Translations under genes and position numbers: made by a program
Notes under the pieces: generated by a model
Seen by the model: only the letters and a program-made list of their open reading frames with translations
Database searches by the model: none
Told to the model about the DNA's origin: nothing
Shown: positions 3,339 through 37,900 of the stretch, in pieces
Layout of the letters: each line of letters begins with the position of its first letter
How positions within the stretch are numbered: the stretch's first letter is position 1
Source of the DNA: a virus
Taxonomy: Duplodnaviria > Heunggongvirae > Uroviricota > Caudoviricetes
Virus record (IMG/VR): IMGVR_UViG_2778261419_000003
Coordinates: 1-42,828 of that record
DNA length: 42,828 nt
Reading direction: 5' to 3' (one strand)

Positions 3339-6248
3339 TTATGCCTGAGTACGCAGCGCTTCAAGGCGGCGCAGGTCGAAGTCGTTCAGTTCGTCGGTGT
3401 AATCAGCGGTGATCGGCGCTGGCCATTCGCCAGTGTCAAAGCCGGTAGCGATAGCGCGCATCGCCTTGCGGTACTCGAGCATGCCCAGCTCTAGCAGTTC
3501 AGCGGATGCCTCGATGATGGCGATCCAGTGGTAGTTCTCGTCTTTGTTGACGAAAATCCAGAAGAACTGGTCAAGTGCCGCGGTCTCGCAATACATGGCG
3601 GCGCTCAGGTGATAGTCACGGTCGATGATTTCCCGGTGCAGTTTGGCGCGCAGACCTTCCTGCTTAATGTTCCACATGCTGATGGTTTTAAGGTCGGCAC
3701 CGATGCGTACCCCGTCCAAGTCGATCTCAAGGTCAGGACGCACGCGGACTTCAAGTCCGGTTTCGTCGTCAAAGCCAAAATAGCTCACCTCAACAGCGCG
3801 GCTCGGGTGCTGGAGTAGCATCCCGGCGGTTGGGTGCTGGAGCAGGGCTTTCTGAATGGCCAGTGCGGTGCACAGTTGCTGGCGGGTGACCAGAACTTTT
3901 CCTTGCGGATTCTCACGCCAGGCATCCAGCAATTCGTCGGCGAAGACGGCGTCCGGATTAACAGACTTCACGGCCTGTATCAGGTCTGATTTGGTACCGG
4001 ACACTTTCAGCGGTTGCGGCTTCTGCGCTTCCTGGGCCACCAGGTCAGGATTGATGATTGCCAGCTGCTCGAGTAACGCATCACGGCTACCGCTGGTTTT
4101 CACCTGTGCTGGCAGAGTGGCGTTGTATTCCTTGATGCAGGCTTTCATCGCCGCTGCGGTCTGCTTCTGGTCCGCTTCGATACGCTGATACTCTTCAGGA
4201 AGCGACATATAGCTCTGACCAGTTTCCTCGACTGAACCACCCAGCGGCACCTGTGCTGGCAGAGTGGCGTTGTATTCTTCGAGCAAGGCTTTGATCTCAT
4301 CTGCACTCAGCAGCGCTTGCAGACCTGCGTTGTAATCATCGATAAACGCGCGGATCGTTGCCGTCGTGGTGAATGCGCCTTCCGGAATTACCGGTTCAAC
4401 GCTGAATTCCTCATCGAGCTGCTCTGGCTGCAACGCCAGTGCATGAACCAGGTTACCCATGTCCAGCACCGGAGAACGCTCTTTGGTGATCGTTTTGGCA
4501 ACGTGGCGCGCGTTGAAGTACATCAGGCTAACGCGGGCATCTTTTACCTGCGTGCTGCTGATCCCGTTCGCTGCGTGATAAACCTCGTTCGGCAGACCTT
4601 CATAGCGACCTGGCTCGAAGTAAGCGGGGTAAACAACAGCTGGTTCGTCAGATTGGGCATCTGGCTCGGTTTGTGCCAAAACTGGTTCAGTCTGGTTTAC
4701 AGAATCGCTATTTTGGGCGACAGAATCCGTATTCTGGTTTACATCGGCTTGCTGGCTGGTATCTGATTCTTCACCAGTTTCCATACTGCTTTTGCCTGAC
4801 TGCACTTCAGTACCAGCCTGTTTTTCATCACTGACAGTTTCTTGAACCTGCACATTGCTGGTGGTCTCCGTAGCCTTTTTCGTGCCATGAGTAGCTGAGT
4901 TCTGCAGCAAAGCCGTAACGTCGAATATTCCGTTGCCGACATTTTTAACCAGTTCTTGTTCGACTTTCTGCGGTTGTGCCGCAGCTTCCTCTGCGCGGCG
5001 GCGTGCTCCTTCTTCACGCACGCGTTGCAGGTTCTCTTCGTGAGTGCAGAAGGATTTGCGCGGAGACTCCTTACTTTCAGGTTGGTGAATTTCCTGAGTT
5101 GCTACTTCAGCTTCATGCAACGGCAATAACTCAACCGCAGAGTTGAATTCAGCAGTCATGGTCTGGTTAACAAATTCCAGGTGAGCGACAGGGGTTAGAT
5201 GAATATTTTCCGGCGCGATACGTACCAGGTTAAAAATAGCCGTGCGGTTAACGCCAAGAGCGCCAGGCTGATTGCGCAGAATGCTGCTCCATGATTTCCA
5301 CGGTTCTTCTTTTTTGGTCACGATTTCTTTGGCGCGACGAAGAATGCTGCCTGGGATCTCGAAGTGGTTGAAGTCCATAGGCAGAAGGGCACAGGCAATC
5401 TCTAAATCGAGAGTGTCCAGGGTGTGGTGTGCGTCAGGTCCACGGTCAGTGACGTAACCGCCGTTGGCATTGGTTCCGGAATCAGTACGCTGAACACTAC
5501 TGATGTGATTACCGGCAGCCCATTCACGCGCCAGGATGCCACGGTCAATGTAATCAGTAGCCGCCCACATTCTGGTGAAACGGAGTACCAGCGCGAGTTC
5601 GTGACGCTTGTCCTGGCTGAACACTTTGCGAATGGCATCGGTGTAGCGCCACAGGTCTTTGGTGTCGTAACCCTTCACTTCCGGGCAGTTCTCAGCAGCT
5701 AACAGCAAGTTCTGGACGTAACTGTTATCAGTGTCCATCTCCAGCGCGCCGATAGCTTCGTACTCTTCGCGGGTTACGTGGTGGCGCAGTTCGTCGGCGG
5801 TGAACTGGGAAAGCAGTTGCTTACGAAACGGCATCTGCACTACCGGGTAGAGGGTTGAGTCGTCGTCGTGTTCGTCCAGCGTGATGCCAGCGGTTTCTGG
5901 CAGCGTTGACTCAGTAGTTATGTGACTATCAACGGTCTGAGCCGTTTTCTCGTCAGAGTTTTCAGCTGTGACTTTTGGCAGCCAGGTGCGGTCATCGTTC
6001 TGCAGTTCGTAGCGTTCGCACCAGGTGTAATCCACTGCGCCTTCTTCCGGCAGGTCGTCATATACCGGGAAATCGGTGCGGATTGGTTTGGCATAATCTT
6101 TACCGCGGCCAGTTTCTTCAATTCCGGCTTCTTCCAGTGCCACATCGAGTTGGAGATTGGCGCGCGCTACACTTTTCGCAGTGAACCAAATCACTGCATC
6201 TTTCTTGCCAGACTTCTGACTGGCTTTTATCAGATGGAAAAATTCCAT
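3339..6248 (-). CDS. recE: Exonuclease VIII (RecE-like)
   Basis: N-terminal region matches the E. coli RecE N-terminus as recalled (DLPEEGAVDYTWCERYELQNDDRTW); large acidic/Q-rich linker; conserved C-terminal nuclease domain; start ATG 6246-6248 with AAGAGGA SD chosen over the extended ORF start at 6353. Confidence 0.8.
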   Translation of the reverse strand: MEFFHLIKASQKSGKKDAVIWFTAKSVARANLQLDVALEEAGIEETGRGKDYAKPIRTDFPVYDDLPEEGAVDYTWCERYELQNDDRTWLPKVTAENSDEKTAQTVDSHITTESTLPETAGITLDEHDDDSTLYPVVQMPFRKQLLSQFTADELRHHVTREEYEAIGALEMDTDNSYVQNLLLAAENCPEVKGYDTKDLWRYTDAIRKVFSQDKRHELALVLRFTRMWAATDYIDRGILAREWAAGNHISSVQRTDSGTNANGGYVTDRGPDAHHTLDTLDLEIACALLPMDFNHFEIPGSILRRAKEIVTKKEEPWKSWSSILRNQPGALGVNRTAIFNLVRIAPENIHLTPVAHLEFVNQTMTAEFNSAVELLPLHEAEVATQEIHQPESKESPRKSFCTHEENLQRVREEGARRRAEEAAAQPQKVEQELVKNVGNGIFDVTALLQNSATHGTKKATETTSNVQVQETVSDEKQAGTEVQSGKSSMETGEESDTSQQADVNQNTDSVAQNSDSVNQTEPVLAQTEPDAQSDEPAVVYPAYFEPGRYEGLPNEVYHAANGISSTQVKDARVSLMYFNARHVAKTITKERSPVLDMGNLVHALALQPEQLDEEFSVEPVIPEGAFTTTATIRAFIDDYNAGLQALLSADEIKALLEEYNATLPAQVPLGGSVEETGQSYMSLPEEYQRIEADQKQTAAAMKACIKEYNATLPAQVKTSGSRDALLEQLAIINPDLVAQEAQKPQPLKVSGTKSDLIQAVKSVNPDAVFADELLDAWRENPQGKVLVTRQQLCTALAIQKALLQHPTAGMLLQHPSRAVEVSYFGFDDETGLEVRVRPDLEIDLDGVRIGADLKTISMWNIKQEGLRAKLHREIIDRDYHLSAAMYCETAALDQFFWIFVNKDENYHWIAIIEASAELLELGMLEYRKAMRAIATGFDTGEWPAPITADYTDELNDFDLRRLEALRTQA

Positions 6249-6386
6249 GTGAGATCCTCTTTTTTGAGTGTTAGAATCCCCGGGCCAGAGATAGCGCCCA
6301 TTGGATGTTTTTTGGTTTGGTATAAATTCCGGTGTAACTTTGGTCGGTGGCACCGGACGTGAATCCCGCCTTGCGCGGGTTTTACG

Positions 6387-6548
6387 TTAGCCTTCGTGAG
6401 CCATCTGGTCGTGCGAAGCGCAACGTTTGGAGCAATACTCTTTTTCTTTGCGCGCCAGCTGTGAGCCGTTGCGATAGAGAAGGGTGCTCTTGATTACTTC
6501 CTCCGTTTTAACCGGCTTGCCGCAATATCCGCATTTCTTGTCTAACAT
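6387..6548 (-). CDS. Small zinc-ribbon protein (53 aa; possibly YdaE-like)
   Basis: Not in the ORF track (<60 aa). ATG 6546-6548 preceded by GGAGGA SD; translation MLDKKCGYCGKPV...EYCSKRCASHDQMAHEG has CxxC...CxxxC zinc-ribbon spacing; sits upstream of recE as ydaE does in Rac. Confidence 0.4.
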   Translation of the reverse strand: MLDKKCGYCGKPVKTEEVIKSTLLYRNGSQLARKEKEYCSKRCASHDQMAHEG

Positions 6549-6559
6549 GACATCCTCCG

Positions 6560-6766
6560 CTAGTGGCTGAGTCCATGCCCCAGACCGTTCAGATAAACTT
6601 CAACCAGCAAATCCTTGGTGTAAGTCATTTCTACGCCGCGATGCAGATACAAACGTCCGCGAGCGTTAGCTGATGCCGTCCAGGTTGAGTCTTTGTGTTT
6701 GACGAGCATCCCCGGCTGAACTGCGCCGCGGTTTACTGTCTGTGTACCGTAGTGCTGATGAACCAT
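6560..6766 (-). CDS. Hypothetical small protein (occupies the kil-like position)
   Basis: 68 aa from ATG 6764-6766 with GGAG SD; the longer 116 aa ORF would need a TTG start; function unknown. Confidence 0.35.
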   Translation of the reverse strand: MVHQHYGTQTVNRGAVQPGMLVKHKDSTWTASANARGRLYLHRGVEMTYTKDLLVEVYLNGLGHGLSH

Positions 6767-7018: not shown

Positions 7019-7082
7019 ATTAAATCACTGGTTTATATATATGTCAACTTAAGGTTGGTGTTAATTGTAAATCTGAGGTTTA
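7019..7082 (-). promoter_or_regulatory. Leftward early promoter (PL-like) with two operator sites (OL)
   Basis: Minus-strand -35 TTGACA (7042-7047), 17-nt spacer, -10 TTTAAT (7019-7024); 15-bp pseudo-palindromic operators TAAATcactgGTTTA (7021-7035) and TAAATctgagGTTTA (7068-7082) match the OR sites. Confidence 0.5.
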
Positions 7083-7121
7083 TGTGGCTGGGTTTTGTGA
7101 CACGTCTGCAGAATCGCAGGC

Positions 7122-7148
7122 AAAAAAAATCCCGACGCGTGGTCGGGA
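7122..7148 (-). terminator. Rho-independent terminator ending the repressor-linked operon
   Basis: Plus-strand A8 run then TCCCGAC-GCGTG-GTCGGGA; on the minus strand a 7-bp GC-rich stem followed by U8. Confidence 0.6.
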
Positions 7149-7221
7149 TGAGAAGGTTCGGGGAAGGCGACAGAGTTAGTAGCTGAGAGCCTTATAACTC
7201 AGGCGTATTGACCAAATCTGA

Positions 7222-7743
7222 CTAAAAGAAGTGCATAAAAGCTTTGTACAGCCCTGTACCAATGGCGATAATCGCAGGGACACCTAAGAGAATCGCCAAT
7301 TTAGCATCAGAGATTTTCTTGTCCACTGTGTCTGATGAGGGCTTTTTGTCTACAGACTCTTTGATACTAGACAGCCTCTCCAAAACTACAGCCATATTTT
7401 TGTCCAGTGAATTCACTGTCGTATCAACTTTTGAAACTGTGTTTTTTATCTCGGCAACATCTTTCTTGATGTGGGCAACTTCAACCTCAAGAATAGCCAA
7501 TCTCTTTTCCATGTCGTCACCTCCATCTTCAGTTGACGTATGAATGATTTCAGTATCATCCATAGCAACTGATGTGACAATCCGTTTTTGTTTATCCGAA
7601 GCGGCAAAACTACAAGCACCCATAAGGAAGGTTGCTTGGCTCGAAGCTACTGATGAAAACTCTAAGCCTACTGTAGCTCCGCTATGGTCTGAATATGCAA
7701 TCAATAACTTCCCTTCACCAAGAGATGATTGAGCCGCATCCAT
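7222..7743 (-). CDS. Coiled-coil protein with single C-terminal transmembrane helix (immunity-region accessory gene B)
   Basis: ATG at 7741-7743, 7 nt after the upstream stop, with GAGGAA SD; about 173 aa; central heptad-like coiled coil; C-terminal hydrophobic segment AILLGVPAIIAIGTGLY; AT-rich by eye. Confidence 0.5.
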   Translation of the reverse strand: MDAAQSSLGEGKLLIAYSDHSGATVGLEFSSVASSQATFLMGACSFAASDKQKRIVTSVAMDDTEIIHTSTEDGGDDMEKRLAILEVEVAHIKKDVAEIKNTVSKVDTTVNSLDKNMAVVLERLSSIKESVDKKPSSDTVDKKISDAKLAILLGVPAIIAIGTGLYKAFMHFF

Positions 7744-7749
7744 CAATTA

Positions 7750-8031
7750 TTATTCCTCAAACATACTTTTTAAGGATTGATAAAAATCATAAGCCTTTTG
7801 TTTGCTTAAAGTCACAGACACAACTTTGGTTCGCTGCATGCCCTTGACGACTATATCCGCATTATCCGTACCGATGATCGGGCTGCTATTCAGGAACACA
7901 AAATTGTAAACTTCGTAACCGGCATTTTGTGTGCCGATTGTTACGACACCGTCAGCATTGGTCTCGATGAAATTTTTCGCTTCGATTACATCATTAAGAT
8001 GCATAAGTTCGACGGTTGTTTCTTTAGACAC
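7750..8031 (-). CDS. Hypothetical soluble protein (immunity-region accessory gene A)
   Basis: 93 aa; GTG start 8029-8031 preceded by GGAGGA SD at 5-nt spacing; tightly coupled to downstream gene B; AT-rich by eye. Confidence 0.45.
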   Translation of the reverse strand: MSKETTVELMHLNDVIEAKNFIETNADGVVTIGTQNAGYEVYNFVFLNSSPIIGTDNADIVVKGMQRTKVVSVTLSKQKAYDFYQSLKSMFEE

Positions 8032-8095
8032 CGAATCCTCCAGAAGATATTAAATCTTGAAATATTTTTATTACATGGAATTAGATACTACTGGT

Positions 8096-8485
8096 TTAGG
8101 TTTGCTCACCTTGCGATCGAATCCGACCCTTCATGTACTTCTCGTACAGCTCATCTAACTCTTTCAGGCGAAGCGCAAAAATGCGGAGCATGTTCTGCTG
8201 CTCTTCTTCCGGTAACTGGCGGTAGAGCTCGAGCAAACGCTGTTCGTCCGGTTTGAGACCGTCTTTCTCCCCAACGTCTTCACCGAGTAGCCAGGCGACA
8301 GAAATACCAACAGCGTCGGCTATGGCCAGTGCCGATTTCTTACTAATCACGCCTTTTTTGAACCAGCCGTTTACGGCCTGAGGGGTGACTCCAGCTATTC
8401 TTGCCATGTCTGCTTTGGTAACGCCGCGATCAGTGATCTCAGTAAGGCGCTCCACCAGAACGAGGTTGGGTTCTTCTTTTCTCAT
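8096..8485 (-). CDS. CI-like prophage repressor (HTH, XRE family)
   Basis: ATG 8483-8485; about 129 aa; N-terminal HTH (TKADMARIAGVTPQAVNGWFKKG); divergent from the cro-like gene across an operator-containing intergenic region. Confidence 0.8.
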   Translation of the reverse strand: MRKEEPNLVLVERLTEITDRGVTKADMARIAGVTPQAVNGWFKKGVISKKSALAIADAVGISVAWLLGEDVGEKDGLKPDEQRLLELYRQLPEEEQQNMLRIFALRLKELDELYEKYMKGRIRSQGEQT

Positions 8486-8587
8486 ATGGTCATTGTAAAT
8501 ATTTGGTTTATGCACGCAATAAATCCAAAGTTTGCATGAAGTATAAATCTGTGGTTTACTTCTGCTATCAATAAGCAGGAGAAGCAC
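8486..8587. promoter_or_regulatory. Divergent PRM/PR-like region with three operator sites (OR)
   Basis: 15-bp sites TAAATatttgGTTTA (8496-8510), TAAATccaaaGTTTG (8520-8534), TAAATctgtgGTTTA (8544-8558), spaced exactly 24 bp; candidate PR -35 TTGCAT (8532-8537) / -10 TTTACT (8555-8560); candidate PRM -10 TACAAT on minus strand (8492-8497) abutting the repressor ATG. Confidence 0.55.
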
Positions 8588-8806
8588 ATGTCCGCACTCG
8601 ATAAAGCAATTAAAGCCGCTGGCTCTGCCAGAAAGCTCAGCATCGCGCTTGGTGTGACGAGTATGTCTGTAAGTCATTGGAAGAATCGTGACCAAGGGAT
8701 CGTCCCGCCAAGCTATATCTTCCCGATTTTCAAAATGACAGGCGTAACCCCCCACGAGCTGCGCCCTGATCTCTATCCAAATCCCACTGACGGATTACCA
8801 AAGTAG
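8588..8806 (+). CDS. Cro-like HTH regulator (YdaS-like)
   Basis: 72 aa; AGGAG SD; HTH segment ARKLSIALGVTSMSVSHWK; divergent from repressor. Confidence 0.75.
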   Translation: MSALDKAIKAAGSARKLSIALGVTSMSVSHWKNRDQGIVPPSYIFPIFKMTGVTPHELRPDLYPNPTDGLPK

Positions 8807-8817
8807 GAGCACTGACA

Positions 8818-9375
8818 ATGCAAACACTTTCTTTTCAACAGAATAACAGAGCGCCATCAGAGCACCTGAAATTCCAGTATCAACACAGTGAGGCTGAAGG
8901 CCAGCCGGTCGATCACCGGGCTATCTGTTCTGCCGTCCGCGCCTGGGCGGCGGCAGAGGGCCGCGTGGCGGTCGCTCTGGCGATTAAAGAGGCTGCCGAA
9001 CAGGCCGAGCTTGACAGCATTGACATGACCGGCAGCGCCGATGTGTGGAACGTGAAGCTGTTTCGCTGGCTGGACAACCACGAGAAATCACCGGCCTACC
9101 GGGCGAACGTCGAGCAGCTGGCGCCGGTAATAATTTCGGTTCTGCCGCTGGCGTACCGGGATCGCGTGATTAAGCACGACTGCTTTGCGGTTCGTGTCGC
9201 CAGGTCGGTGAAAGAAGACGCTGAGGCGATACAGGCTGTCGTCCTCAAAGCCCCCAGACACGAACGGATGAAGGAAATCAGCGAGAGCATCGTAGCCAAG
9301 CTCTACCTGGACGGACCTGATTCTGTGGCGCCCATTATGGCGATGGTTACAACGATGCTGGGTGGTGCGCTATGA
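8818..9375 (+). CDS. YdaT-like protein (CII-position regulator)
   Basis: 185 aa immediately after the cro-like gene with AGGAG SD; position and size as for ydaT of Rac-like prophages; sequence family not verified. Confidence 0.4.
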   Translation: MQTLSFQQNNRAPSEHLKFQYQHSEAEGQPVDHRAICSAVRAWAAAEGRVAVALAIKEAAEQAELDSIDMTGSADVWNVKLFRWLDNHEKSPAYRANVEQLAPVIISVLPLAYRDRVIKHDCFAVRVARSVKEDAEAIQAVVLKAPRHERMKEISESIVAKLYLDGPDSVAPIMAMVTTMLGGAL

Positions 9376-34921: not shown

Positions 34922-37900
34922 ATGGGTGAAAAAATGCAGCTTCTTAAACAAGAAACCATCCTGCAGGGTGCCAAAGGGGGAGGTGGCAGTTCACATACTC
35001 CGGTTGAGCAGCCTGACGATCTGCTGTCGGTCGCAAAATTAAAAATGCTCATTGCCGTTTCTGAGGGGGAAATACAGGGCGACCTGACCGCTCAGAACAT
35101 TTTTCTCAACGATACGCCGCTGGCAAACGACAGCGGGGAATACAACTTCAGCGGCGTGAAATGGGAGTTCCGCAAGGGCACACAGGACCAGACCTATATT
35201 GCCGGGATGCCCCAGGTCGACAACGAGCTGGCCGTGGGCACAACTGTCACCACCACCGCGCCCTGGACGCGCCAGTTTACAAACCTTTCCCTGGATGCCA
35301 TCCGTATCAAGCTCAGCCTTCCGGTCCAGTATCTCTATAAAGATAATGGCGATATGGTGGGCACGGTCACCGAGTATGCGATCGATTTATCAACGGACGG
35401 CGGCGCCTGGAAAACGGTTGTAAACGGCAAGTTTGACGGAAAGACCACGACGGAATATCAGCGTGACCACCGTATCGATCTGCCAAAATCCACGTCCGGC
35501 TGGTCTGTCAGGGTCAGGCGTATTACGGCTGATGCCAGCGGATCAAATTCGAAACTGGTTAACGCCTTCAAGGTGTTTTCGTATGCGGAAGTCATCGACA
35601 GCAAGCTTCGTTATCCTTTAACAGCGCTCCTGTATGTCGAAGTGGACAGCAGCCAATTCAACGGCAGCGCGCCGAAAGTGACCTGTAAGATAAAAGGCAA
35701 GCTGATTAAGGTTCCGGATAATTACGATCCGAAAACCCGAACCTATTCTGGTTCATGGTCCGGCGGGTTCAAAATGGCATGGTCCAATAACCCTGCCTGG
35801 ATCTTTTACGATCTGGTTCTGGATGAAATTTACGGCATGGGCACGCGCGTGGATGCGTCCATGGTGGATAAGTGGGCGCTGTATTCAATCGCCCAGTACT
35901 GTGACGAAATGGTTTCCGACGGGGCCGGTGGCACCGAACCGCGTTTCACCTGCAACGTTTTCATTCAGAGCCAGGAGGACGCCTGGCAGGTACTTAACGA
36001 TCTCGCCGCGGTATTTCGTGGAATAACGTTCTGGGGCAACGATCAGATTTATGTCCAGGCAGACGTCCCGCAGGACGATGTTGACTGGGTTTATAACGTC
36101 TCAAACGTTATCGATGGGCTGTTTACTTATGCGGGCGGCTCATACAAGAATCGCTACAGCTCCTGCCTGGTGTCCTGGTCCGATCCGCAGAACCATTACA
36201 GCGATACCGTTGAGGGGGTTTACGATTCGGCGCTTGTAGAACGTTACGACGTCCGGCAGACGTCCCTGACCGCAATCGGCTGCACCTCGCAAAGTGAAGC
36301 GCACCGACGCGGTCGCTGGGTATTGCTCTCCAATGCCAAAGACGGGACCGTATCGTTTGGCGTGGGGCTGGACGGTTATATCCCTTTGCCCGCTGAAATT
36401 ATCGGTGTCGCCGATCCTTTCCGCTCTGGTAAGGAGAACGGGGGCCGTATAAGCGCGGCCAACGGCCGCCAAATTACCCTCGATCGAGAAATAGACTACG
36501 CGGCGAAAGACCGGCTGGTGGTTAACCTTCCCGACGGAAAAGCCCAGACGCGGACAATCAGCGCGGTGAGCGCCGATAAAAAAACGGTGACGGTGGCTAC
36601 GGCATTCAGTCAGGTTCCTGTGGCGGGCGCTGTTTGGGCGATAGACAGTGATAACCTCGCAATACAGTACTTCAGGGTCACCTCAATCGCGGCTAACGAC
36701 GACAGTACAGGCGGTTTCACTATTACGGCCGTTCAGCACGATCCAAACAAATATCGTTACATCGATGACGGCGTTCGGGTCGAGTCTCCCCCGATCACCG
36801 TCACGCCGATAAGCGTCCTGTCTGCTCCGAAGAATATCGTGGTGACTGAGAGCGATCATGTGTCTCAGGGGCTGACTGTAGCAAGCCTGGACGTGTCATG
36901 GGATAAGGTAGAGGGCGCAATCCGGTATGTTGCCCAGTGGCGTAAGGACAACGGGGACTGGATAAACGTTCCGGTTACCAGCGCGCAGGGTTTCTCGGTT
37001 CAGGGCATTTATTCGGGCAGCTATGACGTGCGCGTACGGGCGCTGAATGCGCAGGATACGTCGTCACCATGGGGATACGGTGAAACAACTTATCTCTCCG
37101 GTAAAACGGGAAAACCGGGTACTCCGCTCAACTTCCTGGCGACCGAAGATGTGGTCTGGCATATCGACCTGACCTGGAAATTTCCGGATGGCTCAGGCGA
37201 CACGGCCTATACAGAGATTCAGCGCGCCACAACTGCCGACTACGCCAATCCTGAACTGCTGGTCCTGGTGCCGTACCCGGCTGCAGATTATCAGCATGGC
37301 CCCATGCCTGCCGGCGTTCGCCAGTGGTACCGCGCGCGCCTGATTGACCGTATCGGTAACGCCGGGGACTGGACCGACTGGATCATGGGCACGTCCTCGA
37401 TAGATGTCAGCGAAATAACTAATGACATTCTGGAGGATATGAAAGAGTCGGAAACGTTCAAAGACCTGATCGAGAACGCGGTGGACAGCAACGAAAAAAT
37501 TGCTGGCATGGCTAACGATATCAAACAGGCCAACGACGAACTGGAGCAGCAAGCGAAAGATATCGCCAAAAACGCCCAGGATATCGGGAAGGTTCAGACC
37601 AGCGTTACAAACCTGTCGAGCACGGTCGGAGATGTGTCTTCTTCTCTGAGCAAGCTTGAGCAGACAGTGGCGACGGCTGATACCGCGCTGGGCCAGCGCA
37701 TCGATAACATCAGCGTGTCTGTGGACGGTATGACGGGAGGAGTGAAGAACTCTGCCATCGCGATTATTCAGGGCAACCTGGCGCAGGTGGCGGCGCGCAA
37801 AACGCTGTCTGCATCCGTCGCCGGTAACAGCGCGCAGCTGGACCGCATTGATGAGGTGATCGTCAACGAGAAGGAGGCAACGGCGCGTTCGCTGCTGAGT

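Follow-up and report, generated by a model that had tools for sequence, protein, structure and literature searches.

RexAB of phage lambda is the oldest known prophage exclusion system. It is credited with excluding phages such as T4 rII through depolarisation of the membrane. Its genes encode a soluble and then a membrane protein behind the repressor, ahead of a terminator that precedes the left operator and promoter (OL/PL); RexB, regarded as a channel component, has 144 amino acids (aa) and several transmembrane (TM) helices. Here we describe two genes, A and B, that occupy the same slot in a 42,828-nucleotide (nt) stretch of DNA (IMG/VR record IMGVR_UViG_2778261419_000003, positions 1 to 42,828; hereafter the window), which was identified as a Rac-like lambdoid prophage of Escherichia coli. 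Gene A encodes a soluble protein and gene B a tail-anchored coiled-coil membrane protein. By position, modular architecture, and analogy, we tentatively propose that the pair may be a lysogen-expressed module of a sensor and a membrane effector, which would act in superinfection exclusion or abortive infection.

Phage P22 offers two further comparisons. The exclusion proteins SieA and SieB of this lambdoid phage, which are expressed in lysogens, span the membrane several times, lack a long coiled coil, and show no homology to A or B. Their likeness to the pair is of another kind: sieB is annotated with an internal in-frame start that gives the antagonist Esc, paralleling the conserved internal Shine-Dalgarno (SD) sequence and ATG of gene B, from which a short isoform is predicted, and P22-like relatives carry a partner-B pair in the stretch from mnt to gene 16 where P22 has sieA. 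The defence pair of mycobacteriophage Butters is reportedly gp30/gp31, a cytosolic and a membrane protein. Proteins encoded by the Butters prophage defend the host against heterotypic phages (PMC7542560). The host belongs to another phylum and there is no homology to A or B; the likeness is one of logic only.

XhlA, the PBSX 'hemolysin' (PF10779), is a small protein in which a coiled coil at the N-terminus precedes a TM helix at the C-terminus; B likewise has a coiled coil ahead of a C-terminal TM helix. However, B is encoded in an immunity operon rather than beside holin and endolysin genes, and it has an additional N-terminal domain and a partner gene. In Salmonella prophage BTP1, the abortive-infection gene bstA lies directly behind the repressor gene and is transcribed from the repressor promoter; BstA acts where phage DNA is replicated, and no membrane anchor is reported for it (PMC8585504). 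BstA thus resembles the pair in its slot but consists of one protein, without homology to A or B. More generally, the interval between cI and N is regarded as a mosaic hotspot of lysogen-expressed accessory loci such as rexAB and bstA (PMC8585504, PMC7067206), a description for which both papers cite Degnan et al. (2007). HepS (PMC13043305) and Tai (PMC11364771) were also compared with the pair and are unrelated to it.

The pair occupies the rexAB slot

Leftward along the minus strand, the order of elements is helix-turn-helix (HTH) repressor, gene A, gene B, terminator, promoter/operator region, kil, ydaE, recE, and recT (Table 1). The pair therefore lies between the repressor and the Timm/OL-PL region, in the repressor's orientation, as rexAB does in lambda. 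Gene A begins 64 nt past the repressor end and closes with a double stop codon, gene B follows after 6 nt, and the terminator lies 72 nt beyond the B stop codon. An initial annotation, made from the sequence alone, had described two coupled minus-strand genes of 93 and about 173 aa behind a CI-like repressor, followed by a terminator and then PL/OL. Both open reading frames (ORFs) and their gaps, the hairpin with its T8 run, and the operator-flanked promoter agreed with this description. A terminator-like hairpin was looked for in the gap between the repressor and A, and none was found there; the repressor would thus be the first gene of a co-transcribed repressor-A-B operon.

The comparison with lambda cI-rexA-rexB-tImm-PL, also drawn initially, was borne out by phage HK544, which has lambda immunity. 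Its identity to lambda is 99.1% over cI-cro and 97.6% over Timm-OL-PL, and between these flanks lambda positions 35827-37191 (rexB, rexA) are replaced by 934 bp encoding HK544c103 and HK544c104. HK544c103 (183 aa) is 55% identical to B, and HK544c104 (93 aa) is 74% identical to A. The HK544 immunity region was reportedly first sequenced by Degnan et al. in 2007.

The pair is also present in the Shiga toxin 1 (Stx1) phage of E. coli O157:H7 Sakai, as ECs2991/ECs2992. Among 5426 complete E. coli genomes, 93 have this variant and about 205 a related one, and the 1.6-kb segment of the window recurred in 13 at 99.8-100% identity, with both genes annotated 'hypothetical protein'. Together, the three counted variants occur in roughly 300 of the 5426 genomes, including enterohaemorrhagic E. 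coli (EHEC) O157:H7 and O26. When A and three B variants were compared by tblastn with 50,697 phage records, only hypothetical or unannotated records were matched. The suggestion that the module was possibly undescribed therefore stands for its function but not for its genes, which had been deposited as conserved hypotheticals in HK544 and Sakai.

Expression of an A homologue has been observed: ECs2991 was identified by liquid chromatography-tandem mass spectrometry in rumen-fluid proteomics of O157:H7 cultures without deliberate prophage induction (PMC3936929). Strain 86-24, used in that study, carries the pair at 99.9% identity. Moreover, comparison with homologues of 73-81% identity gave ratios of non-synonymous to synonymous substitution rates (dN/dS) of 0.096 for A and 0.062 for B, with dS saturated. 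Genes A and B are under strong purifying selection.

Architecture of proteins A and B

Heptad and hydropathy analyses confirmed that B combines a coiled coil with one C-terminal TM helix and that A, which has no hydrophobic segment, is soluble. The TM segment is the sole hydrophobic segment of B (1.96 in a Kyte-Doolittle window of 19 residues), is followed by eight residues, and is highly conserved across partner types. In the coiled coil, L85, E86, K134, and P135 are invariant and S136 is nearly so; K134-P135 marks its end. An AlphaFold2 (AF2) model of B built on its family alignment, with a predicted local distance difference test (pLDDT) score of 60, contained helices at residues 77-132 and 137-172. 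Over the first 50 codons of B, dN was 0.10 and dS 1.04.

B matched phrog_12602 (2.7e-54), a PHROG without assigned function, and its C-terminal part also matched phrog_3556 (3.2e-28). There was no Pfam match over the cut-off and none in NCBIfam. SlyX (PF04102) was rejected as an identity for B, as its score of 24.5 bits fell below the gathering cut-off of 30 and the match was confined to the coiled coil (residues 78-138). The initial likening of B to XhlA-type proteins holds for the architecture only: Pfam XhlA was unmatched at E <= 1, and the PHROG 'hemolysin' families phrog_937 (1.4e-5) and phrog_1193 (5.7e-3) matched weakly.

The product of gene A is predicted to be beta-rich with a C-terminal helix. 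It matched phrog_12039, likewise a PHROG without function, at 1.6e-47 over residues 1-93, and had no match in Pfam, NCBIfam, PADLOC, or PDB sequences. Searches of these four resources upheld the view that neither protein belongs to a recognisable family. An AF2 model of A built from the family alignment was unreliable (pLDDT 48). The A family is very narrow: when 1.8 billion representatives were searched exhaustively with its hidden Markov model, only about 14 clusters of small proteins (50% identity) proved genuine. Five long repeat proteins that also matched were dismissed as spurious multi-stretch matches; the two that were read consist of FN3-like tandem repeats. RefSeq/PGAP gives gene A as 84 aa from the ATG at 8004. 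We favour the 93-aa form from the GTG at 8031, because the phrog_12039 profile and all homologues span 93 residues and because the GGAGGA SD sequence stands at the GTG.

A conserved core with exchangeable partners

B homologues are built from a variable N-terminus, a Gly-rich linker, a conserved coiled-coil start, the coiled coil, and a C-terminal TM helix. Their core carries the motif GG..M.E.R(V/I)A.LE.DV.(H/Y)I(K/R).D...(L/I)K. The coiled coil varies in length and often ends in KKPS, and the TM helix is one of several types, the commonest of which, LAILLGVPAIIAIGTG, has many small residues and is itself strongly conserved. Searching with the core profile gave at least 699 protein clusters (90% identity; E <= 1e-3). 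The best 120 matches bearing an organism name all came from Enterobacterales. None of the listed matches contained a Pfam domain, and the sole name among them was an automatic 'Hemolysin XhlA' in UniRef. The pair itself is conserved at 35-80% protein identity in Escherichia, Citrobacter, Enterobacter, Klebsiella, Cronobacter, and Rahnella. With its core motif, coiled coil, TM helix, and co-oriented partner, the window pair fits this uncharacterised family (phrog_12039 with phrog_12602/3556).

We surveyed the gene context of about 90 loci from viral contigs and genomes, which represent about 60 distinct contexts. A co-oriented partner gene nearly always preceded B. An HTH repressor divergent from cro/cII preceded the partner in 47 contexts, only one of which had a terminator-like hairpin between repressor and partner, and a terminator followed B within 150 nt in 51 of the 60. 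The pair was found behind HTH-only repressors, S24-type CI repressors, and lambda cI. Three P22-like phages have it after an Arc/Mnt-like repressor, between mnt and gene 16, at the place of orf59a and sieA in P22. These P22-like loci (L037 6990-8332; L082 5632-6971; L084) have a third gene after the pair, c39, encoding 110-124 aa (phrog_5962) with an N-terminal TM helix and a coiled coil.

The partners and the B N-termini fall into at least four families plus rarer ones, none with an annotated function. The four partner families are A (93-106 aa, phrog_12039), c10/c114 (87-113 aa, phrog_4231), c6 (136-156 aa, phrog_5893), and c18 (142-167 aa, phrog_5881). Family A showed distant kinship to c10/c114 (hhalign probability 92%, E 5.8e-7 over 80 columns). 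Profile comparison revealed no relation between A and the large partner families c6 and c18, nor between A and the B N-domain.

Partner and N-terminus co-vary. An A homologue lay directly upstream of 35 of 35 B proteins with the window-type N-domain but of 0 of 54 without it, and this held down to 35% identity, whichever TM type B carried. Because of this co-occurrence, we infer that A works with the B N-domain, and the two proteins would be in contact.

A few B-family copies lie among tail genes. In these (L036, L072, L073 at 7556-8300, and L058), the partner is a zinc-ribbon-like protein of 119 aa or c18, and the B copies adjoin DUF6246 near the tape-measure gene; those of L072 and L073 are C-terminally truncated. 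In many related loci, small conserved ORFs of families c11 (65-90 aa) and c9 (67 aa) lie on the opposite strand between the B terminator and PL, for example at L004 6552-6749 and L057 8457-8660; these lie outside the window.

A candidate internal start in gene B

The linker of B (codons GAT GGA GGT GAC GAC ATG) places an SD-like sequence ahead of an in-frame ATG at Met78. This position was an in-frame start codon in 49 of 49 distinct family genes (ATG in 45, GTG in 4). The energy of the duplex with the anti-SD sequence averaged -9.35 kcal/mol at the internal start and was -6.3 or lower in all 49 genes. By comparison, annotated starts averaged -4.4, and 1983 internal ATGs of neighbouring genes averaged -2.6, only 10% of them reaching -6. 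GGAGG was found upstream of the internal start in 24 of 29 unique sequences. Gene callers often begin homologues at the internal codon although the upstream frame is open.

The amino-acid sequence explains much, but not all, of this signal, because codon-usage-weighted synonymous recoding gave a mean of -8.06 against the observed -10.13. In addition, of the 11 sequences whose linker stretch holds just one Gly-Gly pair, 10 encode the first glycine by GGA, a codon that makes up about 20% of the Gly codons there; this count is indicative, and the sequences are not fully independent. From these features, a short 96-aa B isoform comprising the coiled coil and TM helix is probably made alongside full-length B. 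The possibility that the true B is only the short ORF from Met78 was ruled out, as the first 50 codons show purifying selection and vary together with gene A.

The cassette is exchanged as a unit

In four sibling E. coli prophages, blastn homology to the window ended at 7136-7138, within the terminator, and resumed at 8106-8130, at the repressor 3' end. Siblings with different cargo had repressors 92-99% identical to that of the window and the same kil/recE arm. That these limits (7138; 8106-8130) are common to siblings with other cargo further supports the lambda-like layout. G+C content was 0.41 over 7222-8031, against 0.52 in the repressor and 0.524 in the window, and G+C at third codon positions was 0.38-0.44 in the two genes against 0.57-0.58. 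The AT-richness noticed at first sight was thereby confirmed, and the horizontal acquisition it had suggested was upheld; the cassette is best explained as an accessory ('moron') operon exchanged horizontally between phages.

The slot carries varied cargo. In strain ET881 it holds a gene for a 467-aa hypothetical protein. In 210205630 (L003 4457-5859) it holds genes for a DUF6932 protein and a 310-aa protein, which match the PADLOC defence candidate PDC-M63A/B at 9e-40 and 9e-44; further right, this prophage has restriction endonuclease and HEPN genes. The AR_0118 cargo consists of a second HTH protein, a YoaK-like peptide, HicA/HicB, and a hypothetical protein. In 1368KP (L095 2071-3017, the same slot as 7139-8105), a second HTH gene is followed by genes for proteins of 101 and 211 aa. 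The 101-aa protein falls in the A/c10/c114 small-partner superfamily (hhalign probability 91.6%), and the 211-aa protein has a coiled coil and a TM helix, then an (Ala-Pro)n tail, with a weaker match to the core (probability 74%).

Many otherwise different cassettes end in a near-identical terminator, AACCCGGCCACCG(C/T)GCCGGGTTTTT, about 1-90 nt past the B stop codon. It stands at the position annotated Timm in HK544; the window hairpin differs from it. This shared terminator may be a conserved recombination boundary of the slot.

In E. coli KL53 (L098, NZ_CP030919.1 1072604-1074188), an IS3 element lies in the 3' part of B, at the equivalent of about 7222-7380. It leaves an ORF of 119 aa without the TM helix, a natural knock-out among the 13 genomes.

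Regulatory elements and neighbouring genes

A 16-nt palindromic operator, TAAATCnnnGGTTTAT, occurs in four copies in the window (direct-repeat family D2). Two flank a putative PL with a -35 hexamer TTGACA (7042-7047), a 17-nt spacer, and a -10 hexamer TTTAAT (7019-7024), as read from the sequence. PL was missing from the promoter scan because its -10 hexamer lacks an A at position 2. It would drive kil, ydaE, recE, and recT.

A promoter-like site, TTGCGT-16-TACAAT (8483-8520, minus strand), ends 6 nt ahead of the repressor ATG (8485) and is overlapped by the operator at 8496-8511. It suggests a leaderless repressor mRNA, like that of lambda cI from PRM. PGAP places the repressor start at the GTG at 8515, which would put the operator within the gene. 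The repressor matched Pfam HTH_3 (1.5e-6), Phage_CI_repr (8.6e-4), and NCBIfam DicA (1.9e-8). To its right, on the plus strand, the YdaS/cro-like and YdaT/cII-like genes are followed by replication genes O and P. ARAGORN found no tRNA genes in the window. A sibling prophage record (L001) has annotated tRNA genes at the equivalent of the nin region; among them is a tRNA-Ile of unusual length (92 nt).

Table 1. Coordinates of the A/B locus and its surroundings in the window (UTR, untranslated region)
Feature	Position	Strand	Description
recE	3339-6353	minus	Exonuc_VIII
ydaE	6387-6548	minus	
kil	6560-6763	minus	phrog_294, 2.5e-33
OL/PL	7019-7083	minus	operators TAAATCnnnGGTTTAT at 7021-7036 and 7068-7083 flank promoter 7019-7047
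Intrinsic terminator (Timm analogue)	7121-7149	minus	8-bp stem 7129-7149 (5 GC), then T8 run
Cargo cassette	7139-8105	minus	gene A, gene B, 3' UTR, part of terminator
Gene B	7222-7743	minus	ATG start at 7743, 173 aa
B C-terminal TM helix (residues 147-165)	7249-7305	minus	AKLAILLGVPAIIAIGTGL, rich in small residues
B coiled coil (residues 77-135)	7339-7515	minus	16/17 a/d positions hydrophobic, one unbroken register
Gly-linker SD and ATG (Met78)	7510-7524	minus	GGAGGTGA, SD 4 nt before in-frame ATG
B N-terminal domain (residues 11-48)	7600-7713	minus	beta-hairpin and helix by AF2
Gene A	7750-8031	minus	GTG start at 8031, GGAGGA SD 5 nt upstream, 93 aa
Repressor	8096-8485	minus	129 aa, HTH only, DicA/CI-like, without S24 cleavage domain
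OR region	8496-8559		two TAAATCnnnGGTTTAT operators (8496-8511, 8544-8559) between repressor and cro-like gene
YdaS/cro-like gene	8588-8806	plus	divergent from repressor
YdaT/cII-like gene	8818-9375	plus	divergent from repressor

Proposed function and alternatives

In the model that we propose, transcription in the lysogen would run from the repressor gene through the operon and halt at the operon's own terminator before OL/PL. A would be a small cytosolic protein working with the N-domain of B, and B would sit on the cytoplasmic face of the inner membrane through its C-terminal TM helix and oligomerise through its eight-heptad coiled coil. The variable partner and B N-terminus would form the specificity or sensing half, whereas the conserved linker, coiled coil, and TM helix would form the part that acts. 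When another phage infects, this effector part would perturb the membrane or a step tied to it, and so exclude the phage or abort the infection. The short B isoform, lacking the N-domain, might itself be active or might antagonise full-length B, just as Esc antagonises SieB in P22. Blocking of DNA entry from the periplasmic side seems unlikely, because nearly all of B is predicted to be cytosolic, and a cytoplasmic trigger with a membrane output appears more plausible. The proposed logic is thus RexAB-like without RexAB homology: neither A nor B matched a RexA or RexB family (Pfam at E <= 1; PADLOC), B has one hydrophobic segment and so differs from multi-pass RexB, and A has 93 aa against 279 in RexA.

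Several lines of evidence argue for an anti-phage role. These are the rex slot, the replacement of rexAB in HK544, the independence from repressor type, the presence of PDC-M63 and HicAB among the hotspot cargo, the pattern of variable sensor and conserved effector, the operon anatomy, the detection of ECs2991, the purifying selection, and the internal start. Other observations weigh against this role. Slot position is guilt by association, and the same slot holds cargo of unassigned or non-defence type. No known defence, exclusion, or toxin protein resembled A or B in sequence or fold. In PADLOC-DB 2.0, A had no match and B gave coiled-coil noise (LmuB, DruC, JetA; E 1e-3 to 2e-2), and partner variants and other B variants likewise gave nothing significant. 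Profile searches of the PDB returned nothing for A and coiled-coil noise only for B, Foldseek retrieved no PDB structure for B at E <= 1e-3, and structural inference is unsafe because both AF2 models are of low confidence. The window variant is rare (13/5426 complete E. coli genomes), and the module is dispensable in KL53, whose copy is broken by IS3. The internal SD-likeness is largely forced by the Gly-rich residues, and single cases are not significant. Finally, searches of the literature by accession, locus tag, and topic found no functional study of the pair and no phenotype.

A different role during lysogeny, outside defence, is unlikely in our estimation but fits part of the evidence. 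The pair could be a fitness or virulence moron such as bor or lom, or a modulator of the switch or of a membrane protease, as with CIII on FtsH or 434 Hex; its location in the immunity operon, its presence in EHEC prophages including the Sakai Stx1 phage, and the detection of the A homologue in rumen fluid would all agree with this. However, a role tied to one switch is disfavoured because the pair is mobile among phages whose repressors are unrelated (HTH-only, S24 CI, Arc/Mnt) and even enters tail-gene regions. A and B lack signal peptides and B is mostly predicted to be cytosolic, unlike surface virulence morons. We consider it rather improbable that the pair is a toxin-antitoxin-like addiction or stabilisation system serving prophage maintenance, with B as a membrane toxin and A as its neutraliser. 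Two small, tightly coupled genes with the soluble protein first, HicAB in the same slot of AR_0118, the IS3-inactivated B copy, and the co-variation of A with a B domain are what such a pair might show. Against this, no homology links either protein to a known toxin or antitoxin, A lacks a DNA-binding motif, and the pair is placed in the repressor operon with no promoter detected ahead of it. The hallmarks of a type II system were not found, as A had no Pfam or NCBIfam match and no promoter-like site was found directly upstream of it. Diverse partners on a conserved core look more like target-driven diversification, although toxin-antitoxin and abortive-infection roles are not mutually exclusive.

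The XhlA-like architecture, the weak PHROG 'hemolysin' matches, and the one UniRef entry named 'Hemolysin XhlA' could also point to B as a lysis accessory, a holin helper in the prophage's own lytic cycle. This is very improbable: Pfam XhlA is unmatched even at E <= 1, B lies outside any lysis cassette, in a repressor operon that a terminator insulates from the early-left operon, and its HK544 homologue replaces rexAB. Least credible of all is that the ORFs are non-functional remnants or chance frames in AT-rich DNA. Their atypical composition and bare 'hypothetical protein' labels would be expected of such frames, but the conservation of the pair across six genera at 35-80% identity and dN/dS values of 0.06-0.10 with saturated dS refute this explanation, and a peptide of the A homologue has been detected.

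A sensor and membrane effector acting against infecting phages remains our preferred reading of A and B. Beyond the window, it is possible, if more doubtful, that the cassette is one member of a large, hitherto unrecognised Enterobacterales family of two-component anti-phage systems carried by prophages. In these, exchangeable cytosolic partners and fitting N-domains would be the sensors, a tail-anchored coiled-coil effector in two isoforms would act against infection at the inner membrane, and the system would stand in for RexAB in phages with lambda immunity. The family-level picture, the co-occurrence of partner and N-domain, the two repressor-linked slots, and the conserved internal start appear to be new. 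An unrelated pair with the same soluble and membrane layout thus stands in the exact regulatory slot of RexAB. The family is modular, with a conserved core around which partners, N-domains, and TM anchors change, and so offers a workable model of sensor-effector diversification in prophages; HK544, an isolated laboratory phage with the pair in place of rexAB, makes it tractable. Even without a role in defence, the pair would represent a lysogen-expressed membrane module that is widespread in pathogenic E. coli.

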